A stretch of 64,000 bases of DNA from Rhodobacterales bacterium (GTDB lineage Bacteria; Pseudomonadota; Alphaproteobacteria; Rhodobacterales; CAZPXZ01), in assembly GCA_965219495.1 (NCBI GenBank), contig OZ244777.1, positions 1,398,419 through 1,462,418 of the forward strand, in the 5' to 3' direction. The translations under genes and the position numbers were made by a program. Shown one piece after another: positions 8,123-57,019 of this stretch; within the stretch, counting starts at the first letter, position 1, and each line of letters opens with the position of its first letter. The notes beneath the pieces were generated by a model. The model was not told the origin of the DNA, did no database searches, and saw only the letters and a program-made list of their open reading frames with translations.

Positions 8123-9207
8123 CGGGTGGCTCCCGAATCAACAGAGATTCCGGCGTGCACCGACGGCATCTCGAGCGGATCAAATCCGTAGTGCCGCAGC
8201 CACCGAATATCGCATTCGAAAAATGCGCGCAGATCCGGCATGCCGTATTTGAGCATGGTCAGGCGGTCGATGCCGAGTCCGAACGCGAATCCCTGCCATT
8301 CGCCGGGATCCACGCCACACGCCCTCAACACGTTCGGATGCACCATTCCGCATCCGAGTATCTCCAACCAGTCCTCCCCTTCGCCGAAAGCGAGGCGACC
8401 GCCCTCCCAGGAGCATCGGAGGTCGACCTCCGCGGATGGTTCGGTGAACGGAAAATGCGAGGCCCGAAACCGGAGTTCGACACTCTCCACCTCGAAGAAG
8501 GCTCGGCAGAATTCCTCCAGCGTCCAGCGCAATTGCGCCATGGTCACATCCCGGTCGATCGCCATGCCTTCGACCTGGTGAAACATGGGCGAGTGCGTGA
8601 CATCGCTGTCGCAACGATACGTGCGTCCCGGCGCGATGAAGCGCACCGGCGGACCAAGTTCGAGCGTGCGTATCTGCACTGGAGAAGTATGCGTCCGAAG
8701 AACCCGTCTCTCGCCATCCGCCTCGGCGAAGAAGAACGTGTCGTGTTCCTGACGCGCCGGATGTTCGGGAGGCATGTTCAAGGCATCGAAGTTGTAGAAC
8801 TCACTTTCGACATCCGGTCCTTCGCGCAAGTCAAAACCGAGATCCGCAAAAATCGCGATGATGGACTCCGTTACCTGGTTGACCGGATGGATCGTCCCGG
8901 CCGCCTCTGGACGGGTTGGCAGAGTCACGTCGACGCCTTCGGCGACGAGGCGCTCTTCAAGTTCCACCTCGGCGTATTCCGCCTGACGCTTCGCGATTTC
9001 AGACTCGATATGAACCCTCAGTCGGTTGAGCACAGTGCCGCGCTGGCGCCGCGCTTCGGGCTCCATCTTTCCAAGCCCGCGGACCAACCGGGTAATCTGC
9101 CCCTTTCTGCCAAGGGCAGCCACACGAACCGCTTCGAGAGCGGCGGTGTTTTCCGAAGCCTCGATTGCCTTGAGGTACGAGTTCTGCAGTTCTTCCAGAT
9201 CGGACAT
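8119..9207 (-). CDS. pheS: phenylalanine--tRNA ligase alpha subunit
   Basis: 362 aa carrying class II aaRS motifs ([53 protein letters not shown]). Confidence 0.97.
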
Positions 9208-9247
9208 TCGACGAACAGCTTGCGGCTATTCCCCCATCGGGGAGATA

Positions 9248-9610
9248 TTATGCAATGGCTTTTTGGGCGCGCTCAAATATTGCGTCAAAGACTTCGGGCT
9301 CCCGAACCGCGAGATCTGCGAGCACTTTCCGGTCGCATTCAATCCCCGATTTCTTCAAGCCCTGTATAAAGCGGGAATAGGGAAAGGCAGGATCCCGAGC
9401 CCTCACCGCCGCATTGATACGCTGTATCCACAAGGTGCGAAAGTTGCGTTTGCGGACCTTTCGGTCCCGGGTCTGGTATTCCCGGGCGCGATCCACGGCC
9501 TGCATCGCGACCCGGATCGTGTTTTTGCGGCGGCCGGAATATCCCTTCGCGGCATTCAGAATCTTGCGGCGCCGGGCACGGCTGGCGACCGTGTATCTTG
9601 CTCGTGTCAT
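9248..9610 (-). CDS. rplT: 50S ribosomal protein L20
   Basis: 120 aa beginning [28 protein letters not shown]...[14 protein letters not shown]. Confidence 0.97.
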
Positions 9611-9625
9611 CGTCGATTCCCCGCT

Positions 9626-9823
9626 TCAACCGTACGGAATGAATTTGCGGACGATCTTCTGGTCGGGAGCGGACAGGACTTCCATTCCCCGCGCCTTGCG
9701 AATGAACTTCGGCGTTCGCTTGATCATGCCGTGGCGCTTCCCAGTTTGTTGCGCCTTGATGCGCCCGTTTGCGGTTACCTTGAATCGCTTCTTGGCCCCC
9801 GACTTTGTCTTCAGCTTGGGCAT
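9626..9823 (-). CDS. rpmI: 50S ribosomal protein L35
   Basis: Internal ATG of ORF 9626-9946 gives a 65-aa protein, [37 protein letters not shown]. The start codon complement cat is at 9821-9823. Confidence 0.95.
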
Positions 9824-10058
9824 TTCGTCCTCAAGAATGTGTTTGGACAACAGAAACAGCCGCCTCGGCAGCCCATTGCGAGCCGGGCGGCTCTGCTGAT
9901 CCCCGAAATACGGGAAATCGGGACGTTTGACAAGGGGGGCCGCCACGCGCCGCCTCCCTCCACAGTCCCAATTCTACTGTCTTGGGCAATCATACCTATC
10001 CGCAAGGGTTTCTCGGCGCCATTCCACGCCACTTGTGGCGAAGGCGCCTTCGGGCGAT

Positions 10059-11389
10059 TCAATCCGAAATCAGTTCGGTGATCTCACGCCGGAACGGAAC
10101 CGTGTCCCCGGTTACGGGAGCGCCGTCCAATTCTTCTGCGAATCGCCTGCCGGCAAAAACCGCATGAGCGATTGTCGCGGGCGCCAGCGCGTCACCGATT
10201 GCCTCGACGGTTTCTATACCCGCGTCTTCCCAAGAGTCCCTCACTGCTTTCAATTCGGCGACGATTTGATCCGAAGGAATTCTCGAAGTCACGAGGACGG
10301 TCGTGTCGGCTTCGATTGACTCGGCTCGGCCAGTGTGAACGCAAGAGACCGAGGCAACGCCGGGAGCAATTCGGTCGAGTTGGCGAAACGCCTCGATTCG
10401 GATGCCCTTTTCCAACATTCGCGCCTGTATGAAGTGCTGTTCCATCGTGTTGCGGGTCCAGGTCGAAGCCTCGGAAGCCGGGGTAATGTATGTCGTTTCG
10501 AACCCGCCGTCCGCGAGGCGCTCAGCCAGGACCCCGCCCATATAGAAGTGATCGTCGTCCCAGACCGCCACTTTCTTCCCGCTGGGCAACAGGCCGTCCA
10601 TCAGATCATCGGGAGTAAGAACCTCAGACCCCTCCGCAATGGGCACCGGTGTCTTCCAGCAGTAGCCGATTCCGTCGATGCGCCATCGGGCGCCGGTCGC
10701 TATCGCAACTCGGGGAAAGCCGAACTCCAGAATCGCCGCGGCGTCAAGCTCCGATTCCATGTACATCATGACGTTGGGAAGCTTGTGCAGTTGCCCGACC
10801 CGGTAGTCCCGGACCCGAATCCAGGCGGCGAGCCCCGGCAGCCGGCTCTCCCGGGTCACGCGACCGCCCGCCTCCGTGCTTCGTTCCGCCACGGTCACTT
10901 CGTAACCGCGCTTGCCCATCGCCTGAGCAGCCTCCAGGCCCGCCGGACCCGCTCCGACAATCAGCACGGCCTTGCCGCTCTCCTTGGGCCGGATGTATTC
11001 CGGATGCCATCCGCGCCGCCATTCCTCTCCCATGGAGGGGTTCTGGGTGCAGCGGATCGGCGACATCGTAAAGTCCCCCGACACACAGATATTGCACCCG
11101 ATGCACTCGCGTATGTCTTCCAGCCGCCCCTCCTCCACCTTCCTGGGCAGAAACGGGTCGGCGATCGACGGGCGTGCGCAACCGATCATGTCGACTATGC
11201 CTTTGCGGATGACGGAGACCATGCGATCGGGAGAGGTATAGCGGCCCACGCCAACCACAGGCTTGGTGGTAAGCTGCTTCACGCCCGCGATGAAGGGTTC
11301 CTGCCGCCCCTCCTCTCCAAAGCGGGATGTCTGGCTGTCGTTCTCCCACGGAGCAAGGCAAACGTCCCAAAGATCCGGGATTTCGGCAA
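10059..11389 (-). pseudogene. trimethylamine/dimethylamine dehydrogenase-like flavoprotein, C-terminal part (interrupted by IS)
   Basis: Translation EIPDLWDVCLAPWENDSQTSRF...KPVVGVGRYTSPDRM...GCARPSIADPFLPRKVEEGR...CIGCNICVS...LIVGAGPAGLEAA matches the 4Fe-4S and ADP-binding half of TMADH-type enzymes. The reading frame continues upstream of the listed ORF as far as the IS junction. Confidence 0.8.
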
Positions 11390-29494: not shown

Positions 29495-29591
29495 TCGGAT
29501 TTAGCTAACCACCCCCGCCGAGGAGTTCCGATCATGCTGCCTGCCCGTCTTGGCTTCATTCCCGACAACGCCATCGTCATCAGCGAGCAGT

Positions 29592-29680
29592 GAGCGTGCT
29601 CACATAGATTGATTTCGGATCGGGTGGATCCGATCAGATTCCGTGCATGAATGTCGATCGGTTCCCCCGGGGTGCTTGCA
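29592..29680 (+). repeat. 89-bp repeat R1 (partner R2 at 33931-34019)
   Basis: Hand alignment gives 4 mismatches in 89 bp, same orientation. It contains CGGATC-GGGTG-GATCCG and GAATGTCGATCGG. Confidence 0.85.
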
Positions 29681-30436
29681 AGACTCCCTGAACGCAAAAG
29701 GAAACCTCCTTTTTTGGCGCCTTCACCACCGGAATTCGACGGGCCTTGATTGCCGTTTGCGGCTTTCCCGCCATCGGGATTGAATGGCGAATAGTGATGG
29801 TGTCATCGCCAACCAGAACCTCTTTGACCAGAAGCTGAACGATTCGTTGCCGTGCCGGAACGGCGATGTTCTCGGCCGAAGAACGCAATCGCGGCAGAAA
29901 GGCTGTCAGGGTTTCCGCGAACCGGAGATAGGTTTCCCGGTCCTGGGCTCGACTCACAACAAATTGCAATGCGGCATGAAGGGTCTTATTTCGTAATGTT
30001 GGGTTCAACATTACGAAATTGTGCCCCGCATGCCCGGGAAGAGCCGGTCATTGGCAACACGAGGGTCGTAAATCCCGTCTCCGTCCGACACCAGGCAGCC
30101 AACCAGGCCGCAATACTCCAGCAGCGTGTGCCAGTCTCGGCCATTGCGCGCAAGCCGGGAAGCCGCCACCGACAGGATCAATCCAACTTCCTTGCGGCAT
30201 ATGGCGGCCGGCAGTCGGTCAAATCCGGGCCGCGTCACGCCGTCCCCGGAACGGCCAAGGTAGTCGTCAACGGTCTCGATCCGCCGCCACCCCAGTTCCC
30301 GCGCACGCTCCATCAGACGGTATTGACGCTGTCGGCTTTCCGGGTGGTTCCGCACCTGGCCCGGCGTGGACTGGCGCACAAACACCCAGGCGGCACGGCT
30401 CAAATGCTCGGAGGTGATCCGGGAATCGTCATTCAT
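29681..30436 (-). pseudogene. large serine recombinase with large internal deletion
   Basis: The N-terminal resolvase domain (30011-30436: AAWVFVRQSTPGQV...ASRLARNGRDWHTLLEYCGLVGCLVSDGDGIYDP...GMRGTIS) is joined directly to a C-terminal tail (LQFVVSRAQDRETYLRFAETL...RQRIVQLLVKEVLVGDDTITIRHSIP). The junction is the palindrome at 29988-30019. Confidence 0.75.
29988..30019. repeat. perfect 14-4-14 palindrome HP3
   Basis: ATTTCGTAATGTTG GGTT CAACATTACGAAAT. The stop of the N-fragment and the start of the C-fragment both lie inside it. Confidence 0.95.
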
Positions 30437-31103
30437 TCTTCCCCCCTCCCTTCGCGCACCACGCCATCGCTTCCGCAATCGCCTCCGCCAAGAGCGCAAC
30501 CAGCCGCATCCGTAGTTCCTCCGTCAACGGCTCCAACGGGTTCTTCTGCGGAAACAACTCCGCCAGCCTCTCCTGTCTTCGTCCTGTCATCTCGTTCTCC
30601 CGCAGCCACTCCCTCCAGCCCGGAAAGAAACGCATTGACAACTTCACGCGCCGCCAGGAGGCTTCGCAACGAAATCCGTGGCGGGTCGCGAACGTCCAGC
30701 GCAGCCATTTCCGCGCGGGCCATCCATTCCGGAAGATAGGCAAGCGCTGCATCCGGTTGCCGGACAATCAGAACACCCTTGCCGCCAACTACCCGACGCG
30801 CAACACATTCTTAAGGATTACGCCGGCTCGTCAGAGCCGAGCTTAATCTTTTTGAACGAAGCCGCGTCCCCCTGGGCGGGGTTTTCACGCTATGTGCAAA
30901 GTGTGGTTGCCTGGAAGCGTTGGCGGACGTTCAGCGGGCTTGTTCTGTGCTTGAAGCGTGCTGGATTCGAAGCGTTTTGAACGACAGTGGGGTTGCGGGA
31001 CGGCGGTTTGCCATCGGGCGGAATGGACGAGGGAACGGCGCGAACAGGACGCGGTTGGCCGGCTCGGTTCGGCGCTGGATTGGCCTTGGTTTGTGCGGCG
31101 TCT

Positions 31104-32363
31104 TCATGGCGCGGGGATTTGCGGCGGGGCTGGCGGGGGCGGATCCCGGGATGACGGCGGGCTGGTCTGGCGGGGGATTTCGCGGATCCATTGCAGCTCT
31201 GCGCCGCAATGGGGATAGCCGGGCGCGGTGGCCGGCTCCGGCTCGGCATCCTGGCCGGAAGCGTCGGCTTGGCTCCCGGCTTGGGTGTTTTGCGGGGGGG
31301 CGGTCTCGAAGTTGTGTTCGAAGCCGCCCAGCGCCTTGCGGGCGCTTGCGAGGGTTTTTGCGCGGCTTCCGTTGGCGAGGATGCCGAAGTGGCGGATGCG
31401 GTGCAGGCGCTCGGGCAGGGCATGCAGCAGGAAGCGGCGGATGAACTCGCCGACGTCGAGGGTGGCGATCCCGTAGCGGGGTTTTGGCTGTCCGGGTTTG
31501 CGCGGCTTGCGGTAGCGGAAGGAGACTTTGCGGCCATCGAATGCGGTGATGCGGCTGTCGCCGATGGCAATTCTGTGGGTGTAGCGGGAGAGGTAGCGGA
31601 ACACTTGCTCGGGGCCGCGGAAGGGTCGTTTCGCGTAGATATTCCAGGCCCTTGCGCGGGCGGCGGCGAGGACGGCGCGGAACTCGGCGGGATTGGCGAG
31701 GTGGGCGATTCTGTCGTGGAACTCGAGTTCTCCGCGCGCCCAGGCGCGGTCGAGTTCTTCCGGGAAGCGGTTGCGGAAGCGGCTTGCGAGCACCTTGACG
31801 GGAGCGAAGAAGGTGCGGCTTCCGTTCTTCCATGTGCCGGTTTCGACATTGAAGCCGGCGTTGGGGACGATGCAGTGGAGGTGGGGATGGAAACCCAGCT
31901 TCTGGTTCCAGGTGTGCAGGACGGATGTGCCGCCGATCCGGCATCCGCCATGCCGGGGGTCGGCGGCGATGGCGCGCAGGGCGGCGGCGGCGGCGCGGGA
32001 CAGGATATCGAAGACGACCGTGCGATTGTAGAACGCGATGTCGGCGATGCTGCGGGGTAGCGTGAAGACCAGGTGGAAGTAGGGAACCGGCAGGATCTCG
32101 GCGCTGCGGGCTTGCATCCAGCGCCGTGCCGCGAGGCCCTGGCAGGACGGGCAGTGGCGGTTGCGGCAGGAGTTGTAGAGCGGATGCTCGCGCCCGCAGG
32201 ACGGGCAGCGGTAGAGATGGCCGCCGAGCAGGCGCGTGCGGCAGGCCTCGATGGCCGACATGATCTTGAGCAGGCCGCCGCCGAGGCGGCCCGCCATCTG
32301 CGCGGGCCGGGCCGGGCCGGCGCAACGGAAGATGTCCACCACGCCGGGGTGCGGTTCCTGCAT
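31104..32363 (-). CDS. IS91-family (HUH, Y2) transposase, copy 1
   Basis: 419 aa from MQEPHPGVVDIF. It has the zinc motif CPSCGREHPLYNSCRNRHCPSCQ, the HUH motif GFHPHLHCIVP and the two-tyrosine region FRYLSRYTHRIAI. Confidence 0.85.
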   Translation of the reverse strand: MQEPHPGVVDIFRCAGPARPAQMAGRLGGGLLKIMSAIEACRTRLLGGHLYRCPSCGREHPLYNSCRNRHCPSCQGLAARRWMQARSAEILPVPYFHLVFTLPRSIADIAFYNRTVVFDILSRAAAAALRAIAADPRHGGCRIGGTSVLHTWNQKLGFHPHLHCIVPNAGFNVETGTWKNGSRTFFAPVKVLASRFRNRFPEELDRAWARGELEFHDRIAHLANPAEFRAVLAAARARAWNIYAKRPFRGPEQVFRYLSRYTHRIAIGDSRITAFDGRKVSFRYRKPRKPGQPKPRYGIATLDVGEFIRRFLLHALPERLHRIRHFGILANGSRAKTLASARKALGGFEHNFETAPPQNTQAGSQADASGQDAEPEPATAPGYPHCGAELQWIREIPRQTSPPSSRDPPPPAPPQIPAP

Positions 32364-32542
32364 CCGGGGTCGGGCGCGCGACAGCGCGAAGTCCGAAACC
32401 GGATGGTTCAGCGACTCGAACATCTTGCCGGTGGCGCGGGCGTAGCCCCGCGTGGTTTCGGCATTGCGATGTCCGAGCGCGTCCTGGATGACATTGATAT
32501 CGCCGCCGCGTTCATGCATATGAGTCGCCGCCGAATGGCGCC
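32364..32542 (-). pseudogene. tyrosine recombinase, C-terminal half (box II) of the split IS91-associated integrase
   Basis: (R)HSAATHMHERGGDINVIQDALGHRNAETTRGYARATGKM, which includes the catalytic Tyr region. It runs in frame into the transposase ORF. Its 5' end is at palindrome HP1. Confidence 0.8.
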
Positions 32543-32567
32543 AATGTCGTGTGCGACATTGGCGCCA
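32536..32567. repeat. perfect 14-4-14 palindrome HP1
   Basis: TGGCGCCAATGTCG TGTG CGACATTGGCGCCA. GGCGCC is present on both sides of the 18-bp core. Confidence 0.95.
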
Positions 32568-32568
32568 C

Positions 32569-32942
32569 AATGTCTTGTACTTTTTACGTCGGGTAGCTGG
32601 CTTGAGGCCCTGCAAAGTCTCACGCTGAGTGCAGCATCACTCGACATAAGTCCATGCACGCAGTTTGCCCTTGGTATCCCAGACGGCTTGTTCCGAGAGT
32701 GATTGCAGAGTTTCTGCGAAGGTCCAAACCATTCTCGCGACAACCCTCACTTCTAATGCATCAAACACTTGCGTTCCTGTTGCGGTCTTGCTGGCGATAC
32801 GGACCATGAGTCCAGAAGCATCTTGATTCTCCATATCTCGAGTTGAATCTTGCAACGGAAGCCACAAGACCATGTCGAGTGATTTGACCCTTTTCGCCAA
32901 GCGGCCCAAGGACTTGAACGCATCGCTCGACATAAAATAATA
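32569..32942 (-). mobile_element. small (~383 bp) AT-richer TIR element inserted in the integrase gene (remaining 9 bp at 35376-35384)
   Basis: After the nested IS66-like element is removed, the ends read ACAATGTCTTGTACTTTTTACGTCGG and, as reverse complement, ATAATGTCTTGTATTATTTTATGTCGAG. About 22 of 27 positions match with one gap. The flanks carry GCGCC copies. Confidence 0.65.
32637..32933 (-). CDS. hypothetical 98-aa protein filling the small TIR element
   Basis: This is the only long ORF in the element (MSSDAFKSLGRLAKRVKSLDMVLWLPLQ...). I recognise no family. Its ATG lies within the subterminal repeat. Confidence 0.3.
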   Translation of the reverse strand: MSSDAFKSLGRLAKRVKSLDMVLWLPLQDSTRDMENQDASGLMVRIASKTATGTQVFDALEVRVVARMVWTFAETLQSLSEQAVWDTKGKLRAWTYVE

Positions 32943-32978
32943 GTAACCGTTCGGTTTTAGCGTGATGGGGCTGTGTAT

Positions 32979-33866
32979 TCAGCGGTTCAGGATTCGTTTC
33001 CGGTCTTTTCGCAGGGGGCGAAGCCAGATTTCCTTTTTGGGCAAGGCGTATTGGTTTTGGGTGTCGTAGCGTCCGCGGCCTTGGGTAGTTCCGACATGGA
33101 TCCATCCGGCGGCGCGGTAGGCGGTTCCGACGAATCGCGGGGTCTCGACGAAGGTTTCGACGAGGACGGGGTTGATGTTGTACTGGCGCTTCCAATCCTC
33201 GGGCAGGCGCTGTCGGGCGCTGGCGAGGATGTGGGAGGCGAGGTTGGGGATGCGGATCCAGGGCAGGATGAGGAACCTTGCATTGTCGCACAGGAGCGGG
33301 AGGTTTTTCTCGCGGGTTTGCGGGGACCATCCGATGAAGCGGTCGCGCGGGGCGGTTTTCCATGCCGCGGTGGAGAAGCCGAGCATGGCGAGCGGCGCTC
33401 CGTCGCGGTCCTGGACGGCGTAGCGCATCTGGGCGTCGACCAGGGTCTTGTAGCCGAGATAGTGATAGCGTTCGATGAACTCGTTCCACAGGCGGCTGGC
33501 GCGGGGGCCGGCGCCGGTGACCGGGACGAAGCGCAGCGGACGGACCGCTTCGAGGGTGGCGGGGGGCGGGAACAGCGGCGGGTCGGTGGCCGCGGTGAAG
33601 GGGACCGGCTTGCGCCTGGCGCGCTTGCGGCTTTTCGCCGGCGGCAGGACGATCACCCCGTCGCGATGCATTTTCAGCATGGTGACCTTGGCCATCATGT
33701 GCTTGAGGCCGCCATCCGGCTTGCGCCAGCCGATGCGGCGGCAGAACTCCCGGGCCAGCCGGCTGCGGTTCAAGGCCGGCGGCCCGGCGATCATGGCGCG
33801 CAGCAGTGCCATCTCCTGGGCGCTGAAATCGCGCCCGTAGTAGCGGCATTCGACCTCACCGGTCAT
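32979..33866 (-). CDS. DUF4338 domain protein (DruA-like)
   Basis: 295 aa with NEFIERYHYLGYKTLVDAQMRY, RDRFIGW, CDNARFLILPWIRIPNLASHIL, VETFVETPRFVGTAYRAAGWIHVGTTQGRGRYD. These are motifs I associate with DUF4338. Confidence 0.7.
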   Translation of the reverse strand: MTGEVECRYYGRDFSAQEMALLRAMIAGPPALNRSRLAREFCRRIGWRKPDGGLKHMMAKVTMLKMHRDGVIVLPPAKSRKRARRKPVPFTAATDPPLFPPPATLEAVRPLRFVPVTGAGPRASRLWNEFIERYHYLGYKTLVDAQMRYAVQDRDGAPLAMLGFSTAAWKTAPRDRFIGWSPQTREKNLPLLCDNARFLILPWIRIPNLASHILASARQRLPEDWKRQYNINPVLVETFVETPRFVGTAYRAAGWIHVGTTQGRGRYDTQNQYALPKKEIWLRPLRKDRKRILNR

Positions 33867-33930
33867 GGCGGTTCTTGCAGCCTGCGCCTTCGCTCTTCGC
33901 TCATCGTCCAGGGAAGCCAGATCGCCAGGT

Positions 33931-34019
33931 GTGCGTGCTCACAAAGATTGATTCCGGATCGGGTGGATCCGATCAGATTCCGTGCATGAATGTCGATCGG
34001 TTCCCCCGGGGAGCTTGCA
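33931..34019 (+). repeat. 89-bp repeat R2 (partner of R1)
   Basis: See R1. It lies in the divergent intergenic region between the DUF4338 gene and the Cys-rich ORF. Confidence 0.85.
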
Positions 34020-34073
34020 CAAGCATCCCCGGGGGGTTTGTCTCTCTTGTTATCCAGCAGGAGAGACCAATCA

Positions 34074-34316
34074 ATGTTGCACGGAATCCTCGTCGGCGCC
34101 AGTGAGTGGGCGCATTTCACCCGGATTGACGCGTCGATCGCGGAGGCGTTTCGCGAGGTGGGCTGCGGCCGCTGCGGGGGGCGGCTTCACGTTGCGGATT
34201 ATGCGCGCGAGCCCCGTGGCCTCGGCTTCCGCCGGGGTGAGGGCTTCACGCGGTTCAGCTTCTGCTGCGGTTCGGAGGGCTGCCGGCGGCGGTCGACGCC
34301 GCCCTCGGTGCGCTAA
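34074..34316 (+). CDS. Cys-rich hypothetical protein (probably 3'-truncated)
   Basis: MLHGILVGASEWAHFTRIDASIAEAFREVGCGRCGGRLHVADYAREPRGLG...FSFCCGSEGCRRRSTPPSVR, with GGAGAG upstream. A zinc-ribbon-like CxxC...CC...C pattern. It runs into the antisense strand of the IS66 transposase remnant. Confidence 0.45.
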   Translation: MLHGILVGASEWAHFTRIDASIAEAFREVGCGRCGGRLHVADYAREPRGLGFRRGEGFTRFSFCCGSEGCRRRSTPPSVR

Positions 34317-34434
34317 TTCGGTTCGCGGGTTTACGCCTCCGGATGCTTTCCGGTGGTTTCGGCGCTTTCCGGCGGTTGCAGCGCCGCGGCGGGTTGCTGC
34401 GGGCGCTCCGGTGGCTGTTGCCGTGGCGCTGCGC

Positions 34435-35261
34435 GAGCGATCGACATGAAACCACACCGCGTCGAGCGAAATCCCCACCCACAGCCAGGCGCGGCGCGAG
34501 GCGCCCGCCTCGCCGAGCGCCTGGATCCGCCAGCTGGTCTCGCCGCCCTGGCGCAACCGTTCTGCCGCGCCAGGATCGCTTCCGAAAGCGGCGCGAACAG
34601 CGGCAGGAAACGGAGGATGCTGCTCGACAGGGTCCCCGCTGACAGCCGCAGTCCTTGCTCGCTCATCCATGCCGCGATCCGGTTGACCGGCCGGAAACAG
34701 GCATAGCACTCGTACAGGAAGCGCGCCCAGAAGCTGACGCCGTATGGCGTGTTCGCGAACAGCCGCGCTACCGGCGGCGCCGACACCTCTCGCGGCGACG
34801 ACGCGCAGTCGCAGGCCCGCCGCCGAAGCACGCGCCTGTGCGCCCGGACCTCCACTTCGACGATCTCCAAAACGTGCGAACCGTTCGCCACATAGGATGC
34901 GCCGCAAGTGCCGCAGACCCGGTCCGTCTGCGGTGGATCGCGCGCTTCCGTCTTCTTCGCCAGCTCCGGCCGCTGCGTGCGGCCATGCCCGGCGGCGCCG
35001 AACCGCCGCCGACACCGAAGCCAGCTTCTCGCGGCAACGCTCGAAACCCGAGCGCCAGGAATGCGCCGCTTGCCGCGCGCGACCCGCCTCCCAAAACCGC
35101 GCCTCAGCTTCCGCCTGCAGCGCATCCGACCGTCCCTGTTCCCGTGCGTACAACCGCCGCCAGTCCGGCCCCGCCGGCAACGGCGCACACGCCAAAATCG
35201 GGTCCACCCCGCCAACCGGCGGGGCCGGCATCGTCCCATGCACATCGTCGCGAATCGCCAT
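34435..35261 (-). pseudogene. IS66-family transposase (TnpC-like), frameshifted and 3'-truncated
   Basis: Three frames are needed: an N-terminal coiled region, then VCGTCGASY...VEVRAHRRVLRRRACDC...RIAAWMSEQGLRLSAGTL, then GETSWRIQALGEAGASRRAWLWVGISLDAVWFHVDRSRSA. Homology ends near 34440. Confidence 0.7.
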
Positions 35262-35384
35262 GCATCACACATAGCGCATCCTGAAACGGGTTACCAGTGC
35301 ATCGGCCAATTCGGGATAATGGAAATTAACGGCCGCACGAAAACATCACGTGACAACCGAACGGTTACAATAATACAAGACATT

Positions 35385-36095
35385 ATGGCGCAAACAATGA
35401 AAGGTATGGCGCCGATGGATGCCGGCCCGGTCACGGGCCTGGAGGAAGGCGAAGTTCAGGGTCGCCTTCTTGACGGGGGTGTCCGGGGACTTGCCATAGA
35501 ACAGCCAGCTTGCCGGTCGCGGATAGAGGCGGCTCCAATAGGAGCGCAGATATTCGATCGCCCGCTCCGGCAGCGGCGCCATGCGCTCGTGTCCGCCCTT
35601 GCCGGCGCGGATGTGCAGCAGCCGGCGGTCGGCGTGGATGTCGGAGACCTGCAACGAGAGGGTCTCCGAAATCCGCAGGCCGGCAGCATAGGCGGTCAGC
35701 ATCGCCGCCCGGCAGCGCAGGTCGGGGGTCGCCAGCAGCAAGCGCTCGACCTCTTCCTCTTCGAGATGCCGGGGCAGCTTGCGGGGGATCTTGCGGTTGC
35801 GCAGCCCGGCGACCAGGTCGGGACGGCCGAGCGTATCGCGGAAGAAAAACCGCAACGCGGAGAGGCAGACGTTGGTGGAGCCGGGGTGCAGTCCGCGGTC
35901 GATCAGTTCCAGGACCCAGGCCCGGATTTGCTCCGTATCCAGTTGCTCAGGCGACTGGCCGTAATGGCGGGCAAGACGCCAGATCTCGCGCAGGTAGGAC
36001 TGCTGCGTGTTGTCGGCGAGATTGGCGATGCGCATCTGATCGATCAACCGCTGGCGAAGAATGGAACCCTTGTTCTTGGTGCTTGAAGTCATCAT
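35385..36095 (-). pseudogene. tyrosine recombinase, N-terminal part (ends at HCLRH) of the split IS91-associated integrase
   Basis: MMTSSTKNKGSILRQRLIDQMRIANLADNTQQSYLREI...AYAAGLRISETLSLQVSDIHADRRLLHIRAGKGGHERMAPL...HTFHCLRH, then unrelated codons. The C-terminal half is 2.8 kb downstream at 32364-32542. Confidence 0.8.
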
Positions 36096-36329
36096 CGATC
36101 TCCATGGATGGCGATGGCGCGTGGCCGGACAAGCCGGCAACGGTCCATCAACAAGATCGATGATAAATGGGGGCACGCAGGCCAAGGCGATATCAGACTC
36201 CGCAGCATTCGCCGCCCTCCAAGACCCGCGCAATGTTCAAACTTGAAACTGCCGCGTAGCGGCTTCGTTCTATGCTGCTATATTCCAGCGCGGCCGAATA
36301 TTCGGGAACGGAATCGATGGGAGGACCGC

Positions 36330-50187: not shown

Positions 50188-51957
50188 TCATCCGCCGAAT
50201 TCCAGTTTCAGGGACCGGTTTGCCAGCCACGGCAGCGCGGTCACCTGGTCCGCGAAGCCGGCATTGATCATCATCGGGTTGTGGGCCCGGTGCCCGAAGC
50301 GGACGCGGACGGTGTGATCAGAGATGGTGACGTTGGCAGTGGCGTCGATGAAGTTCCGGAACAGGGTCCTGGCCCGCGCGATCGCCTGCCCGTTGCCGAT
50401 CCGGTTTGCCAGCAGCCGGTAGAGCCCGCTGGCCATGAGGGTGAGCTGGAGGTCGGTGTTGATGCGCATGGGCACGGCGGCGGAGAGCGCGTCCATGTGG
50501 AAGAAGTCAATGGTCTCGGCGATCTGGTTTTCGACGACCATTCTGCGCGCATAGCGGTCGACGAGGTCGGCGGGCCTGGCCCGCATCTGGTTGGTCATGA
50601 GCAGCACCGGGTCGTCGTGCCCGAGGTCGGCGACGGCGATCTGGCGGATCTCGCCGGGATACTGCGGCAGGCGGATGCGGTCGTCGATGATCCGCGGCGT
50701 GCGGTAGCGGCGGCCGATGTTGGCCAGCCGGATGCGGCGCCAGTCGGCCTCGGGACGTGCACGAAGTTCCGCCATCATTTTCTTCGAACGCCGGCGCAGG
50801 GTGAGGAAGGCAATGCCCTGCCGGTCGATCCCGGCTAGGTTCACCTGGGTCGTGAGGCGGCTGTCGAAGACCAGTTCGGCGGGCAGGATGCCGGTCTCGT
50901 CCCGGTAATCCTCGACAAAGCGCAGGATGGCGTCGTTCTGGCGGTCCTTGCGGATGGTCGCATCGGCAGAGCAGAACACCCGGGCCTCGGCATCGCGGGC
51001 CAGGAAAGCGAGGACGCCGTTCTGGCGGCGCGAGCGCTTGGAGACATAATGCTTCTCGATCAGCGCCTGGTCGCCATGGTAGGGAATGGTGTGGAAGTCG
51101 AGATCGAAGGAGGCGCCGGAGCCGAGACCGTGGTCGCGGACGGCGCGGTTCCACGCGCGCATCAGCCCGGGGAGCAGGCGGGGATCGACCCGGGTGCTGT
51201 ATTCGGTGAGCGTCGAGCGCTTGGGCATGGCGTTGAGGCCGGCAAACAGCGCCAGGCCGGGATCGAACACCTCGGCCATGGCCTGCGAGGGCCGGCCGAT
51301 GCCCCAGAGCTTGAGAGCCAGCAGGGCACGCCAGGCACAGTCCGCGGGGATCATGGCGCTGCCCGGCATGGAGGTCTCCGCAAGCAGGCGATCGAGATCG
51401 AGGGCGGCGAGCATCGGGGCGAAGACAAACAGCCCGCCGAAGCGGGTGCGGAACGTGCCCGCCTGAAGGTGGAAGACGCGGCGGTCGGCGACCGGCGCGG
51501 CATCCGGGCCGATGATATCGGCCAGCACGGCAGCAGAGCGCCGCGGCAACCGCGCCAGGCCGGCCTCGCGGATCACCTTGGCCACGGTCGACAGGCTGGC
51601 AGGACAGTCCTCGGCTGCAAGGACGGCGGCGATCTGGTGGATCGACATCTGCCGCTCCCGCCGCAACTCCAGGATACGCCGGTTCCGGTGCCTGCGTGAG
51701 ACCGTCGCCCCCGGAGCGGGCTCTTCGTCCTTCGGCTTCTCTGGCGGCTGGAAGAAGGCCCACCCGGGATCTGCATTGAACGCGGAGCAGAGGTTGCGGA
51801 AGGAGCCGATGCTGTAGCCGAAGGCCTCCGCGGCAGCCTTGCAGTCCATGCCGTCAACGTAGTGGGCGCGCAGCGCCTCGTAGCGTCTTTGGGCCGGGTT
51901 CCGTGGCCTGAGGAATGTGTCCCGGAGTGTCAGAATCTCCAACCCTGCATATAACAC
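50188..51957 (-). CDS. DDE transposase (IS4-superfamily-like, family uncertain), apparently intact
   Basis: 589 aa with a GTG start and two N-terminal HTH-like regions. Motifs are DLDFHTIPYHGD and YARRMVVENQIAE (YREK-like). The C-terminal tail FRNFIDATANVTISDHTVRVRFGHRAHNP resembles the tail remnant in the 877-bp element. The IS ends are not confidently located (roughly 50.15-52.0 kb). Confidence 0.75.
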   Translation of the reverse strand: MLYAGLEILTLRDTFLRPRNPAQRRYEALRAHYVDGMDCKAAAEAFGYSIGSFRNLCSAFNADPGWAFFQPPEKPKDEEPAPGATVSRRHRNRRILELRRERQMSIHQIAAVLAAEDCPASLSTVAKVIREAGLARLPRRSAAVLADIIGPDAAPVADRRVFHLQAGTFRTRFGGLFVFAPMLAALDLDRLLAETSMPGSAMIPADCAWRALLALKLWGIGRPSQAMAEVFDPGLALFAGLNAMPKRSTLTEYSTRVDPRLLPGLMRAWNRAVRDHGLGSGASFDLDFHTIPYHGDQALIEKHYVSKRSRRQNGVLAFLARDAEARVFCSADATIRKDRQNDAILRFVEDYRDETGILPAELVFDSRLTTQVNLAGIDRQGIAFLTLRRRSKKMMAELRARPEADWRRIRLANIGRRYRTPRIIDDRIRLPQYPGEIRQIAVADLGHDDPVLLMTNQMRARPADLVDRYARRMVVENQIAETIDFFHMDALSAAVPMRINTDLQLTLMASGLYRLLANRIGNGQAIARARTLFRNFIDATANVTISDHTVRVRFGHRAHNPMMINAGFADQVTALPWLANRSLKLEFGG

Positions 51958-51999: not shown

Positions 52000-52581
52000 T
52001 CATCCGGTGGCAATGCCAATGAGCTTGCGCTCCGGTAGCTGTTTCCAGCCCGCGTTGCGCCAGCGCTTGTGACGATGCGACCAGATACGTCGCAAGATCC
52101 AGCCGTCAAGCTGGTGGAAGAGTTGGCGAACATGGGCATTGCAGTAGTATTGGCCCCAGCCGCGAATGACCGGATTGATCTCGTCGATCAACTCCCGCGT
52201 ACTGACGGGAGACTTGCGCCGCGTGCGCTTGCGGATCTGGTCCTTGAAGTGCCGGACGGATTTCGCACGCGGAACCGCGTAGCGCGTCCCCCTGCGAGCC
52301 CCGCTCCTGATCTTCGAGGGATGCAGCCTGAACGGCCGCCGGCCCTGCTTGATCTTGAAGCCGAGAAATTCGAACCCGTACTTCACATGGACAATACGGG
52401 TCTTCCCGGCATGCAGGGTCACGCCCAGCTTCGACAGTATCCGCCTGGCTTCCTCCAGTGCCGCCCGGGCTTCCCCGTCTGTGCGGCATGTGATCAGCCA
52501 GTCGTCGGCATATCGAGTAAGTCGATAAGCGCGCCGGCGCATTTCCCGATCAGACGGGGTCAGCAAGATATTACTGAGCAA
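52000..52581 (-). pseudogene. group II intron reverse transcriptase/maturase, C-terminal fragment
   Basis: LLSNILLTPSDREM...RYADDWLITC (the YADD motif), followed by the maturase X region (INPVIRGWGQYY). RT domains 0-4 are missing. Confidence 0.8.
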
Positions 52582-52585
52582 CGGA

Positions 52586-52668
52586 TATGGGAACCTTATG
52601 ATTATGGGAACCTAAGCCGCTGCGGGCGTTGATTTTCAAGGGATTGGACAAGGATCAGGTTCCCATAA
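52586..52668. repeat. TATGGGAACCT x2 (direct) plus inverted AGGTTCCCATA
   Basis: Copies at 52586-52596 and 52603-52613, with the inverted copy at 52658-52668. They lie exactly between the 5' break of the RT fragment and the 3' end of an integrase fragment. Confidence 0.8.
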
Positions 52669-52679
52669 AATTGGCGGGT

Positions 52680-52907
52680 TCAGGTGCCTGCGAGCATCGC
52701 GAGCAACTCGTCCTGCACACCCTTGAACATGCCCTTCCGGAGGCTGGGAGGGCGCCATTTGTCGAGCGTATCCAGCTTGTCGGTCGGATCCGCCTGCAGA
52801 TACATCTCGGTGGTCTGAAGGCTTGAGTGCCCAAGCCAGAGTGAGACCTTCCTGACGTCACCGGTCGCCTCGAGAGTGTGGGTCGCGCAAGCGTGACGCC
52901 TATGTCG
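52680..52907 (-). pseudogene. tyrosine recombinase C-terminal fragment (box II only)
   Basis: RHACATHTLEATGDVRKVSLWLGHSSLQTTEMYLQADPTDKL...LAGT-stop. It begins at the 50-bp palindrome. Confidence 0.75.
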
Positions 52908-52934
52908 TGCACGACATAGGCGTCACGCTTGCGC
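52885..52934. repeat. perfect 50-bp palindrome HP2
   Basis: GCGCAAGCGTGACGCCTATGTCGTG | CACGACATAGGCGTCACGCTTGCGC. The inner part, TATGTCG-TGCA-CGACATA, resembles HP1. Confidence 0.95.
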
Positions 52935-53157
52935 AATGCACATCCTGGAGGCCACAAAAGATATCCGGAAAGTATCCCTCTGGCTGGGCCATGCCAGCAT
53001 GCAGAGCACCGCAGCCTACCTCCGTGTCGATCCCGTGGAAAAGCTCGAGGTGTTGAACGCAATTGTCCCCCCGGCAATCAAAAAGGGATCGTTCGATGGG
53101 GCGCAGGACAAACTGCTTCGGATGCTAGGCGACGCCCCGACTCCACAAATATGTTAA
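52912..53157 (+). pseudogene. second, divergent tyrosine recombinase C-terminal fragment, head-to-head with the first
   Basis: RHACAMHILEATKDIRKVSLWLGHASMQSTAAYLRVDPVEKL...PQIC-stop. Confidence 0.75.
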
Positions 53158-53238
53158 GTGATTCCGGCCCCGAGGCCAGCGCCACAAGGGCGCTCGCCGC
53201 CTCACTCAACATATGTCTTTACTCAACATATTGAATAG

Positions 53239-53275
53239 GCTCTTATCGGTCATGCTGCGCATGACCGATAAGAGC
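53239..53275. repeat. 17-bp-stem hairpin downstream of IS91-type transposase copy 2
   Basis: GCTCTTATCGGTCATGC TGC GCATGACCGATAAGAGC, a perfect stem. Candidate ori-end structure of the rolling-circle element (inference). Confidence 0.6.
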
Positions 53276-53649
53276 GTTGAGCTGAGCCGCGCGCTCCAGA
53301 TGGCGCTGTTCAATGGGGAATGGAAAGGCTGGGCCGGGATTGATTGTGCGGAAGCGATGCGTTTAGTGGCTCGCCACGGGTTCGCCGTGACGTCGAGAGC
53401 CGGCTCCGGGTAGATTTCTTCCTCCAGGCAGGGGCATTCGAGGTCGCTTTTCAGAATCACGAGCGAGATCGACACAGCAGCGACGCGAGCCGGCGGTGCG
53501 TCGCGGCGATATCGGATCGGGATCGGTCGGCACTGGCGCATCGTCATGGTGGTCGGGGCCTTTTCGCTCCTGTCGCGGTCTGGAACCGTGGCCCGGGAAT
53601 GGGGATCTGTCGCAGTGGACCCTGCCCGCACTGCTGGCACACAGTGATG

Positions 53650-54753
53650 TCAATTCCCGTCAGGCGTAGCATCATCTCCTGCGTCGTTTCCGGCTCGGAC
53701 GGTTCCGGATCGGGCTAACCGAGCAGCGCTCGGCATTGGGCAAGCTTGCGAGCCCGGAAGCGATTGGCGAGCAAACCGTAGTGGCGTAGCCGGGTGAATC
53801 CGTGCGGGAGAAAGCGGCGGATGAACTCGTCGGGGTTGAGGCGCATGACCTTGGCTTTGTTGCCATGCGCGTAATCGCGCCACCGGAAGCGGACGTGCTG
53901 GCCGTCGAAGTCGAGCAGACGGTGGTTGGCGATGGCGGTTTTGTGGGTGTAGCGCCCGAGATAGCCCAGAACCTGTTCCGCGCCGGCGAAGGGGGCCTTG
54001 GTGTAGACCACCCAGTCGTGCGACCGCAGCGCAGTTTTCAGCGCTTCGAACACGCGGTCGTCGCCGACGCGATTGGGGCCCGGCATGCCCAGCTCGCGCT
54101 TGCGATGGGCGGTGGTGAGGATGTCGAGATACTTTCCCCGAAAGACCTTGGAGAGGGCCGCCGTGGGAAACAGGAATCCCTTCCGGGCCGGGGTGAGCCA
54201 GCGTTCGTGGCCCGGGCTCAAGCCGCCGTCGGTGACGATGCAGTGGACATGGATGTGCTGCCCCAAGTTCTGCCCCCAAGGTGTGCAGCACCATGGTGAT
54301 GCCGAGCTCACCGCCGAGCCAGCGGGGATTGCGCCCGAACTCGAGCAAGGTCTGGGAAGCGGCCTTGAAGAGCAGCTTGTAGAGGAGTTCGGGACGCGCC
54401 TGGGCGAGGGGGTTGAGCTCGTGTGGCAGCGTGAACACGACATGCCAGTAGCCGATGTCGAGCAGATCGGCACACTGACGCTCGACCCATCGGGTCTGCG
54501 AGAGAGTCTGACACTTGGGGCAGTGCCGGTTCCGGCGCGACGCATATTGAAAGGTCACCGCGCCGCAGTGGTCGCAATGAGCCTTGAATCCGCCGAGAGC
54601 GGCGGTACGACACCGCACCAAGTCGTCCACGACCCGCTGTTGCCGGGTCGAGAGCCGATGCGACTCCGCGTAGGCATCGGCACGTTCGCGGAGAATGTCC
54701 GCCACTTCCAGTGCCGGCCGAGCGGCCGGCGCTGCGTGGCTGGCATGAGCCAC
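53650..54753 (-). pseudogene. IS91-family (HUH) transposase, copy 2, frameshifted
   Basis: GTG start. It has the zinc motif CDHCGAVTFQYASRRNRHCPKCQ. The frame is lost at about 54279 by one extra base (ACCTTGGGGGC where ACCTGGGGGC would give HTWGQNLGQHIHVHCIV). The second frame continues to YLGRYTHKTAI...RHYGLLANR. Confidence 0.8.
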
Positions 54754-54756
54754 CGG

Positions 54757-55618
54757 TCAGGACGACGCGGCTCGTGGGAACTCCAACAGATCCAGTGGCG
54801 ACGGCGTGGCGCTTGTCTTGTTCTGTGCAAGATGCAGGTAGCGCATCGTCGAACGGATCGAGCCGTGCCCGAGCCGGCGCTGAATGACGGGGAGTTCGAC
54901 CCCGGCCTCGAGGAGCCCGGTGGCGTAGCAGTGCCTCAACGTGTGGATCCCGCCGGCTTTGCGGATCCCGGCCTTCCGCTTGGCACACTTGTAGATGTGT
55001 GCGGCCCCCGCGCGGGTCATCGGCCGGCCAAGAAGCTGGCTGGGGAACAGCCAGGGTCGGGGGCGCTCGCGGTGCCAGTACTTGCGCAGCTGCTTGAGCA
55101 GCCGGGGCGAGAGCGGAACGTAACGGTCCTTGTTGCCCCTGCCCTAGTCGACGCGCAGACACATCCGCGCGGAGTCGATGTCCGTGAGCTGCAATCGGCC
55201 GAGCTCGCTTGCCCGAAGTCCCGCGGCGTAGGCCGTCATCAGCAAGGCGCGATGCTTGGAGTTGGTGGTGACCGCGAACAGCCGCACCAGTTCGTCGTGG
55301 TTGAGGATCTCGGGCAGCGTGGAAGGCGTCTTGGCGCCGGGTACCGGGTACATAGAAGTGCGGGTCGGGCAGACCGAGCGTGACGCGGTACAGGAAGCGA
55401 ATGCCGTGGCGTACGCAGTTGCAGCTCTTCCAGCTCAATCCGCGTTCTTCGTGCAGGTAGATGAGGTAATCCTGGACCTCCTGCGCCGAGATCCTGCCGG
55501 GACTGCGGCGGTAGTGTCGCGCGAGCCCGGTGACGGAGTGGAGATAGGAACGCATGGCGTTCTCGGCAAAGGCGCGGACCGTCATGTCGTTTACCATCCG
55601 TTTACGCAAAGGTGTCAT
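54757..55618 (-). pseudogene. tyrosine recombinase partner of IS91 copy 2, inactivated
   Basis: N-terminal SAM-like domain (MTPLRKRMVNDMTVRAFAENAMRSYLHSV...). A 7-bp tandem duplication CGGGTAC at 55338-55351 shifts the frame. In-frame TAG at 55144-55146 (LRVD*GRGNKDRY). The C-terminus is intact (HTLRHCYATGLLEAGVELPVIQRRLGHGSIRSTMRYLH). Confidence 0.8.
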
Positions 55619-55838
55619 GAGTCGTCTCCCTTGAAGTGTGATCGATCACGAAGACGCACCAACCATTGCGCCCGCCGGTGCGTCGGTGAACGACTATCGC
55701 GAAACGACGGAGAGACGGGAACGGTCTACGATATCCGCGACCGTCAAACAGTCGCGCTGAAACGACTCACCGGAACAAGGAAAATCACTCTGAGCGCGCG
55801 GCGGGCACCCTCCCGCCGCGGAACGCGGCTCAGTTCAG

Positions 55839-55870
55839 TGGGAGATATGTTGTTCTCAACATATCTCCCA
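55839..55870. repeat. perfect 14-4-14 palindrome HP4
   Basis: TGGGAGATATGTTG TTCT CAACATATCTCCCA, at the boundary between IS91-type copy 2 and the group II intron remnant. Confidence 0.95.
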
Positions 55871-57019
55871 GGTCCCTGTGCAGCGCGTACGTGCATCCCT
55901 TGGGGGCTTCGACACCGCAGGGTCCCACCCTGCCTCACCCGTTCCGGCAGAGAAGATGTCGCCTTCGACCCTTCACAAAGTCTTGGGACCCCGGACATAC
56001 CCTTTGTCGGTGCTCAATTCCCACGGCTACACGCTCCCCTGTCAACGCTTGACCGCCATCCTCACGAATGACAGCCCACGACTCGGGGCGAAAGGGGTCG
56101 GTTACACCTTGTCGGGTAGGGCACTGGCGCGCGCACCCTTAGGTGGAGGCTTATCCGGTCCTGCCCTTTCGGTCGCAGGTGGGTGCGCAGCTCCACCATA
56201 GGCCACGTTTCCAGCCGCCCTCCCCAAAAACCGGACTTCGGGTTTTCCCCGGTACGGCTTCAAGCAACAGGCACCTGGCAGTTTGGAGCGGAGCCTTCCG
56301 CGTGACCGCCGAGGTTAAGGCCGACCCAGCCATTCCCCCGAGCAGAACCCGCGTTCACTCCGTCCTCAGGCTGCATCGACCACCGTGAGGCTCCGCCACT
56401 GTGTGCGGGCCCCTTGGATGCCGTACAGCCGCCTGTGCCCAGAGGTCCTCGCTCCGGGTGGGTTGTGTTGTCCCACACTTCATCCCTTGGCGACCTCATC
56501 CGCCAGTGTGGAGATCTCCGTCTCATGTCCCGGAACAACCGGTTATAGAGACGGTCTTTGACATTCATAGCGTCATCCTGTCCAACCTCCACACCTTCCG
56601 GACTTTCGCTGCTGTACTTGCCAGGATTGCCGCCTTCAATACGCCGGGTGACCCGTGCTCTTCTCAGTTCCTTCCGCATCGGCTCTGGCCATCGGATCAT
56701 ACGGACACCCTTGGCATCACCAACACCCCGCAAGTCAGCTCCATGCGGGAACCCGTTTTGGCGCTTCATCCGTTCGCTTTCGCTACGGCCCTCCTGTTTG
56801 CTCGCCCCCTGCGCTGACCGGACCGGCAGGGCTTTACGTCCCTGCAAGCCTCCCAGGGCTTTTACTTCCGGGCTTCCAGGTCACCAGGTCACCCCGCATG
56901 CCTGCCGGATATTACTACGACGCCAAACTGAGAATTGCGCCGGTGGGACTTTCACCCACTAGTACAGCAGCTAGTCTCGCTGCACCCTTTCTACTGGACG
57001 TTCACCAGCTACATTGCAC
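55871..57019 (-). ncRNA. group II intron 5' ribozyme fragment (domains I to about IV), truncated
   Basis: The minus strand starts GTGCAATGTAGC at 57019. It contains recurrent GNRA-loop and receptor-like motifs (GGTGAAAGTCCCACC, GCGAAAGCGAAC, GCGAAAGTCCGGAAGG, GGGGAAAACCCGAAGTCCGG) and no credible ORF over more than 1.1 kb. An RT fragment of the same orientation lies 3.3 kb downstream. Confidence 0.45.

Follow-up and report, generated by a model that had tools for sequence, protein, structure and literature searches.

The recombinase-in-trio (RIT) elements were reportedly described in the years 2009-2013, by Van Houdt (2009/2012) and Ricker (2013). An element with RIT-type ends is the subject of this study: it interrupts the integrase gene of an IS91-type element within a 64,000-nucleotide stretch of a Rhodobacterales genome (assembly GCA_965219495.1, contig OZ244777.1, positions 1,398,419 to 1,462,418), hereafter called the window. 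A RIT comprises three adjacent tyrosine-recombinase genes, is ~3.4-3.5 kb long and is bounded by terminal inverted repeats with an overlapping palindrome (PMC3414803, PMC5737581). The published descriptions give an inverted repeat of 28-29 bp overlapped by the palindrome, and palindromic ends of 47-51 bp, and state that the mechanism of movement is unknown. Single insertions have been recorded in radC, in an IS66 tnpA and in a Tn6049-type transposase gene, and a comparison table of 2023 lists the target specificity of RITs as "not tested". RITs occur in many phyla; the literature searched (Ricker 2013 being outside its coverage) reports neither a movement experiment nor a rule for the choice of their target.

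Results

An integrase gene split at its catalytic Arg-His codons

The interrupted host, IS91-family element A (30805-36275, minus strand), encodes an integrase and a Y2 transposase. The transposase (31104-32363, minus strand) is of the Y2 HUH type with an N-terminal zinc domain (Pfam Y2_Tnp, 2.4e-54; Zn_Tnp_IS91, 1.9e-28). Its position next to the integrase's C-terminal part bears out the IS91 association proposed in an earlier note made from this DNA alone (the original prediction). On the minus strand, the open reading frame (ORF) of the integrase N-part (35385-36095) runs from 36095 to the codons TTT CAT TGT TTG CGC CAT (FHCLRH) at 35385, beyond which the sequence is unrelated. This part, ending in ...HTFHCLRH, matches Pfam Phage_int_SAM_4 and positions 2-134 of the 172-position Phage_integrase profile. 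The C-part (RHSAATHMHERGGDINVIQDALGH...TTRGY..., 32370-32540) opens on the same strand at 32540 with CGC CAT TCG (GCG), i.e. RHS, matches profile positions 133-169 and continues into the IS91-type transposase. The gene is split exactly at its catalytic R-H codons, as had been predicted.

A search of ~5.8 billion proteins revealed an intact ortholog (P0001) of 290 amino acids (aa), 95% identical over 99% of the joined halves. Because this intact copy exists elsewhere, the two halves are colinear parts of one gene, as the original prediction had assumed. On the contig that encodes the ortholog (L171), positions 7819-8708 align to window positions 36275-35385, and positions 8702-10438 to 32541-30805. 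Element A therefore has defined ends, with homology to an uninterrupted copy (L171 7819-10438, 95-97% colinear) across window positions 36275-30805; the two transposases are roughly 95% identical, as judged by eye from the translations. The 7 bp common to both alignments (L171 8702-8708) are the duplicated sequence GCGCCAT, whose N-side copy, containing the R-H codons, lies at 35385-35391 (minus strand). Because the alignments overlap by this duplication, the insert comprises positions 32543-35384, i.e. 2,842 bp, in agreement with the 2.8 kb estimated earlier.

The empty integrase site of the source genome would read CATTGTTTGCGCCATTCGGCG, and the uninterrupted junction in the ortholog is TTTCATTCGCTGCGTCATTCGGCG; the junction predicted for an intact copy is thus present there, with four bases different. 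The stop codon of the integrase is TGA in L171 and CGA in the window (also identified by comparison with L171), a change that produces the apparent in-frame fusion of the C-part with the transposase ORF. Loss of this stop codon fits decay after inactivation. Megablast of the region against plasmids returned matches to the IS91 transposase only.

Anatomy of the 2,842-bp insert

On the minus strand, the R-H codons CGC CAT of the N-part are followed by AATGTCTTGTATTAT, the left tip of a miniature RIT-type element (35370-35384), then by a nested 2.4-kb insertion sequence (IS; 32937-35374), by ~370 bp ending in ...GTACAAGACATT (the remainder of the miniature element, 32569-32936, with no family-matching ORF), and by a 34-bp double-core palindrome (32535-32568) composed of GTGGCGCC, AATGTCG, CACA, CGACATT and GGCGCCAT. 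The R-H codons at 32535-32540, inside the palindrome, open the C-part (TCG GCG...), which the palindrome adjoins. We denote the shared 8-bp exchange sequence as O and its reverse complement as rcO; the junction layout is O (GCGCCAT), element, rcO (GTGGCGCC), AATGTCG CACA CGACATT, O (GGCGCCAT). GCGCC is seen three times around the insertion, as noticed in the original prediction, because the copies are O, rcO and O again.

Inverted repeats (AATGTCTTGTA...TTTAYGTCGRG) are present at both ends of the miniature element: the left tip is repeated in inverted form at 32569-32580, and both its sequence and that of the opposite end could be aligned to RIT ends. Compared with RIT left ends, the ends of the miniature element have three ATGTC/GACAT boxes at positions 1, ~18 and ~75, with equal spacing and low overall identity; its palindrome core carries AAT/ATT, whereas canonical RITs have TAT/ATA. 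The palindrome overlaps one end of the insert, as in RITs, and has the layout observed at 25 RIT ends (see below). The junctions, too, are those of bona fide RITs, i.e. an N-part ending in ...LRH directly against the inverted repeat on one side; inverted repeat, rcO, core, O and RH... on the other; and a 7-bp duplication.

No similarity to tyrosine recombinases was detected within 32543-35384, whose ORFs match only DruA and an IS66 remnant, and Rfam returned nothing in 32.5-35.4 kb; the insert is not recognizable as a homing endonuclease gene, intein or group II intron. BLAST of the miniature element against plasmids gave no match, and against all loci fetched in this study the palindrome was the sole match. 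The insert consists of a non-autonomous element of ~400 bp, with inverted repeats of the RIT type, into which the 2.4-kb IS has inserted; by its structure it would qualify at most as a non-autonomous RIT derivative.

The nested IS, which has 31-bp inverted repeats and possibly a 5-bp ATTAT duplication, is a later, unrelated event. It carries a frameshifted N-terminal remnant of an IS66 transposase (NCBIfam IS66 profile 3-145/387; Pfam DDE_Tnp_IS66) and a 295-aa ORF with a DruA domain (DUF4338; 32979-33866; Pfam DruA). A 91-bp direct repeat, 96% identical, is found at 33929-34019, within this IS, and at 29590-29680, at the left edge of the mobile-element cluster, beside an aminotransferase gene.

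Identification of RIT elements by their ends

The pattern CGCCNATGTCGNNNNCGACATNGGCG was scanned in one genome per species (185,579 species), which yielded 90 loci, many of which matched by chance within GC-rich coding sequence. In fifteen, drawn from several phyla, the palindrome is flanked by a common element end, CGACATAGGCGNCAC TATCTACCCTYCCTGAC TATGTCTYGT...CGACATAGTCTYG, and in all of these a recombinase C-part opens at R-H beyond the opposite arm. Behind these ends lie elements with three consecutive tyrosine-recombinase genes (~410, 316 and 330 aa; present in L083, L035, L069 and L044). The elements were identified as RITs because a trio of tyrosine-recombinase genes is the signature of this family. 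The complete structure (recombinase trio plus inverted repeats, ~3.4 kb) was found in L083, L035, L069, L044, L172 and L091-L170. Two loci (L059 and L088) contain mini elements of 310-360 bp, which are simple insertions of the form ...HTLRH, inverted repeat...inverted repeat, palindrome, RHSFA....

A palindrome-independent survey of RIT junctions

Four RitB proteins were aligned, and the 80 best metagenome loci (L091-L170) were fetched by protein similarity alone. The distance from ritB to each end of the element is constant, and 72 of 85 distinct ends adjoin a tyrosine-recombinase gene exactly at the R-H codons. At 49 of the 85 (N-type ends) a recombinase N-part is read inward and places H-x-(L/F/I/M)-R-H straight against the inverted repeat. 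Another 25 (palindrome ends) show inverted repeat, palindrome and an outward C-part, which opens with RH in 23 cases. Among the remaining 11 ends, 7 proved on inspection to be imperfect palindromes, and every resolvable end is either N-type or palindrome plus C-part. When tested individually, 57 of 64 distinct flank fragments (35-110 aa) matched Pfam Phage_integrase. A second inverted-repeat subfamily (TATTCCGCG...) exhibits the same end behaviour.

The struck integrase neighbours an IS91-type transposase in 12 loci, as in the window, and the targets also include rit genes of other RITs. The suggestion that the agent is a parasite of other mobile elements is therefore supported. The original prediction had further attributed to this agent a homing-like specificity for DNA encoding the recombinase active site and had proposed mapping the interruption points in relatives. 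The survey of RIT ends supported the specificity for R-H codons; the agent is however a RIT-family element or its miniature derivative, which most likely integrates through site-specific recombination by tyrosine recombinases, and not a homing system of the endonuclease type.

The same junctions recur in plasmid 2 of Aromatoleum aromaticum EbN1, a finished sequence (L172), and hence are not assembly artefacts. At L172 379-5140 a RIT lies between a RitB-type N-part (...LHDLRH) and a RitC-type C-part, an arrangement that resembles the outcome of a deletion mediated by a RIT within an older one. Many of the L091-L170 contigs end within ~100 bp of a RIT end, and L096 has perfectly inverted duplicate flanks, which are artefactual; short-read assemblies are evidently broken or misled by the inverted repeats and palindromes of RITs.

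Position of the exchange point

In 20 simple insertions, the base at position 1 of O (C side) and that at position 8 (N side) invariably come from the element, while target bases are retained at the reciprocal positions. The exchange can thus be confined to 6 bp, NCGNCA. Loci L132 and L133 agree in every base over 4,213 bp, which comprise the RIT and its right flank, and diverge exactly inside O; beyond that point one has the palindrome and a C-part, and its counterpart has the N-part of another gene. The side on which the palindrome is found varies (ritC side in 13 loci, ritA side in 8), and it is always the target C-part that adjoins it. In L160 and L165 homologous integrases have been struck in opposite orientations, with the palindrome beside the C-part in both.

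As read from their junctions, the RIT elements of the surveyed clade are shown to integrate into the 6-8 bp that encode the box II catalytic Arg-His (G CGN CAY) of other tyrosine-recombinase genes. The pattern fits site-specific recombination by tyrosine recombinases from a symmetric double-core site.

Other palindromes and element remains in the window

Four copies of the core ATGTYG-N4-CRACAT are found in the window (at 29996, 32544, 52902 and 55847), versus 0.02 expected, and in all four palindromes the arms are perfectly complementary over 14 bp or more (6 conserved + 8 variable bases).

The palindrome at 52893-52926 (GTGACGCC TATGTCG TGCA CGACATA GGCGTCAC) is an orphan of the canonical RIT type, both arms of which lead outward into RitC-like integrase 3' fragments. 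Fragment no. 1 (52680-52898, minus strand; Pfam profile 133-169; tblastn to RitC residues 261-330, E = 4.5e-9) and fragment no. 2 (52921-53159, plus strand; Pfam and tblastn) are arranged head-to-head, have diverged, and both open at R-H, i.e. at Phage_integrase profile position 133. It was correctly noted earlier that both begin at these codons. The view that three integrases had been broken separately holds for the breakpoints, all of which lie at the same profile position, but the 52.9-kb junction does not represent two insertions. It is a single orphan attachment-site palindrome linked to two ritC 3' fragments, and is best interpreted as a by-product of a second exchange.

Fragment no. 2 is followed, at ~53195-53235, by the inverted repeat of its own RIT, with two TATGTTGAG boxes as in L104 and L124. 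This ritC 3' end and inverted repeat (52921-53235) belong to a second RIT lineage, of the CAACAT type, whose palindrome (TGGGAGAT ATGTTG TTCT CAACAT ATCTCCCA, 55839-55870) is found 2.6 kb away, separated from the repeat by IS91-type copy B (~53237-55838). The integrase of copy B (55609-54796) is frameshifted and uninterrupted through R-H (tblastn). The outer flank of the 55.85-kb palindrome is a group II intron. Pieces of group II intron are located at 52000-52590, 55903-56127 and 56778-56961, and include a C-terminal fragment of the reverse transcriptase/maturase (NCBIfam profile 189-353) and D1-D4 RNA matches (Rfam RF02005, 122.7 bits; RF02003, 55 bits); on L171, too, a group II intron separates the RIT from the IS91-type element.

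At the fourth palindrome (ATTTCGTA ATGTTG GGTT CAACAT TACGAAAT, 29988-30019) a serine-recombinase N-part stops (30499-30011; Pfam Resolvase profile 3-120), ending in ...GMRGTIS. A 125-aa same-strand ORF to the left of this palindrome and a 112-aa ORF gave no NCBIfam or Pfam match. The palindrome may have been left in a serine-recombinase gene, as a scar, by a RIT lineage of the CAACAT type. A further element of the cluster is a 589-aa ORF (50188-51957) with weak similarity to IS1380/DDE_Tnp_1 transposases.

The palindromes were also considered as terminal hairpins of IS91, which is ruled out by the ortholog, as it places the ends of element A at 30805 and 36275. Abutted IS ends or ordinary IS circle junctions, protelomerase sites, hAT-like excision footprints, and hairpins of diversity-generating retroelements or terminators were dropped by reasoning alone once the link with RITs had been recognized.

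Concerning the IS91-type elements themselves, five tandem 42-45-bp repeats, each with a GC-rich hairpin, are present at the right end on L171 (10453-10664), and one copy in the window (30811-30852). All three IS91-plus-integrase copies encountered (window 30785-30811 and ~53236; L171 ~10664) adjoin RIT-type sequence at their transposase-distal end, namely AATGTGTTGCGCGTCGGGTAGTTGG, an inverted repeat and TATGCCGATATCGGCATAG, and GAAC precedes two of the left ends. IS91-type elements, or their unexplained integrase, may prefer RIT ends for insertion.

Discussion

Proposed mechanism

It is probable, judging from the compared junctions, that the integrase of element A was struck by a miniature, non-autonomous member of the RIT family, which would have moved in the manner of a double-core-site model. 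According to this model, the attachment site would be a symmetric double core, IRR-rcO-TATGTCG-N4-CGACATA-O-IRL (IRL and IRR being the left and right terminal inverted repeats), in which the palindrome core would repeat the inverted-repeat tips and O, the 8 bp beside the inverted repeat (GGCGNCAC), would serve as the strand-exchange region. The free form is envisaged as a circle in which IRR, rcO, core, O and IRL form two adjacent, mirrored core sites; the predicted circle junction of the mini element reads ...ACAAGACATT-GTGGCGCC-AATGTCG-CACA-CGACATT-GGCGCCAY-AATGTCTTGT....

Either O could recombine with a target CGNCAY through the tyrosine recombinases of the element, which would yield N-part-O, IRL...IRR and rcO-core-O-C-part. 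With this layout of the product, the palindrome would always lie beside the C-part, whichever the orientation of the element. The unused second O would stay active after integration and could recombine with another recombinase gene, with an exchange of flanks; this second exchange would generate RITs with an N-part on either side as well as orphan palindromes flanked by two C-parts, of which the 52.9-kb site would be one. In the window, the mini element would have been moved in trans by Rit recombinases encoded elsewhere, after which the 2.4-kb IS presumably entered it and the dead integrase lost its stop codon.

Several points weigh against this reading. None of the 172 loci contains an IRR-palindrome-IRL circle junction, and exonuclease-protected RIT DNA likewise gave no circular junction reads (Nielsen et al. 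2017, PMC5737581). Copies between two N-parts that lack a palindrome are common (at least 9 loci), which is awkward if they are dead-end products. No rit genes were found in or near the window insert, nor any autonomous relative whose ends are of the AATGTC type. The RitB proteins surveyed belong to a single clade, 63-86% identical to the query, and the targets of other lineages are different; all steps of the mechanism were deduced by sequence comparison.

Alternative explanations

The main rival to the double-core-site model retains the same agent and the same target, and postulates a hairpin-type mechanism. The element would pass through a hairpin-ended or single-stranded intermediate, and the palindrome would be made at insertion, by fold-back of the inverted-repeat tip together with 8 bp of target. 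Hairpin intermediates have been proposed by Nielsen 2017 (PMC5737581), and the lack of a circle junction among the 172 loci would be expected; moreover, the palindrome core corresponds to the first 7-8 nucleotides of the inverted repeat with a 4-nucleotide "loop", and at several sites of the CAACAT type the adjacent target is repeated exactly, in inverted form, by the 8-bp arms. However, the inner arm of canonical RITs is often unlike the outer, target-side arm, and so was not copied from the adjacent target. The tracking of bases across O is a classic signature of an overlap region, and the flank swap between L132 and L133 falls exactly within O. We therefore regard fold-back as unlikely.

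Other explanations dispense with a RIT in the window. The 2.4-kb IS (IS66 remnant plus DruA-domain ORF), which makes up most of the 2.8-kb insert, might have targeted the integrase itself and be the owner of the short flanking sequences. This is very improbable, as the IS is bounded by 31-bp inverted repeats of its own and lies 10-15 bp within the mini element, and the same integrase junction is found without the IS in L059, L088 and at ~70 RIT ends. Equally hard to credit is that the palindromes and broken genes are assembly chimeras or the coincidental decay of a mobile-element junkyard. The region is indeed dense in element fragments, many metagenome contigs break at RIT ends and the flanks of L096 are artefactually inverted, but coincidence would have to account for four palindrome motifs where 0.02 are expected, for three breaks at a single Pfam profile position, and for the same architecture in ~100 independent assemblies from many phyla, including one finished isolate plasmid. 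Finally, since N- and C-parts flank the inserted DNA on one strand, the integrase might hold its own attachment site and be partitioned on integration, as are the SSV-type archaeal integrases. The probability of such a programmed split is negligible, and the anatomy rules it out: the order is N-part, insert, C-part, and not C-part...N-part at the ends of the integrase's own element; the integrase belongs to an IS91-type element, whose intact copy has no internal site; and the insert carries foreign inverted repeats.

Implications and wider occurrence

The interruption of element A by a mini-RIT has a practical consequence, in that the window integrase should be annotated as a pseudogene killed by this element. 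The R-H target rule also accounts for the truncated integrases that plasmids such as pHG1 and EbN1 plasmid 2 carry in "complex combinations", which the arrangement at L172 379-5140 likewise explains, as well as for many truncated or unexplained "integrase" gene calls beside trios; the head-to-head fragments at 52.9 kb are recombination scars. The niche of the RITs of this clade is other mobile elements (IS91-type elements, other RITs and phage-type integrases), which they inactivate and on which they ride. As the rule defines both donor and target sites, transposition becomes directly testable.

Other lineages adjoin other genes. On L171 a different RIT lineage adjoins an IS66 transposase at ...PFTNNEA (Pfam profile position 277/284), and CAACAT-type palindromes with RIT-like repeats adjoin an IS66 DDE domain at profile position 135 (YGGY) in L124 and an ISL3 DDE domain at position 83 (VFDK) in L104. 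These comparisons suggest that the overlap sequence of each lineage may set its own target, which, if so, would suggest a compact recombinase system that can be re-aimed. We tentatively extend this, as a conjecture to which we give slightly less than even weight, to the RIT family as general "recombinase-gene hunters". The 6-8-bp overlap present in both palindrome arms would set the target, and different lineages would have retuned it to match those codons of one or another mobile-element enzyme that are most conserved and often catalytic: R-H in tyrosine recombinases, TNNEA and YGGY in IS66 transposases, VFDK in the ISL3 transposase and possibly also, from the 30.0- and 55.85-kb palindromes, GTIS in a serine recombinase, and a group II intron. 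This idea was found nowhere in the literature searched. If it is true, RITs constitute a naturally re-targetable integration system based on tyrosine recombinases, and are widespread as parasites of other mobile DNA, which they inactivate.

Comparison with known systems

The element family is known. What appears to be new, with Ricker 2013 outside our coverage of the literature, is the targeting of R-H codons, the reading of the palindrome as a double core, the mapping of the exchange to 6 bp, and the mini derivatives.

The Tn554 family, GInt and SE elements resemble RITs in that several tyrosine recombinases act jointly, are highly specific for their target sites and leave no classical target duplication (PMC10214605, PMC5385486). 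They differ in their gene sets (TnpABC; GinABCD), in their targets and in lacking a palindromic double core. The att554 site of Tn554 lies in radC, and we know of no element of the Tn554 family, GInt or SE that targets recombinase genes.

Closer in their way of life are the "res hunters" Tn5053/Tn402 and the IS1111-group ISs, which insert in integron attC sites or in Tn21 inverted repeats. As in RITs, the landing site is a conserved sequence exclusive to other mobile DNA, on which the parasite rides along. These elements, however, use DDE or DEDD transposases and enter non-coding recombination sites or repeats, whereas the RIT is a tyrosine-recombinase element whose target is the coding sequence of a catalytic motif.

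The SSV-type partition (PMC8371274) likewise leaves an integrase gene in two pieces around inserted DNA, but the SSV gene splits itself at its own attP, while here a foreign element splits the integrase. The mini elements of the window, L059 and L088 are comparable to MITEs, the miniature transposable elements with inverted repeats, in being short, in carrying the inverted repeats of a parent family and in having no recombinase gene; they derive, however, from a tyrosine-recombinase element, and MITEs from DDE-type ISs. The closest relatives are the RITs themselves. The relatives analysed here share the trio structure of the described RITs exactly, and the window insert, although a ~400-bp miniature without rit genes, shares with them the architecture of its ends and the type of its junctions.

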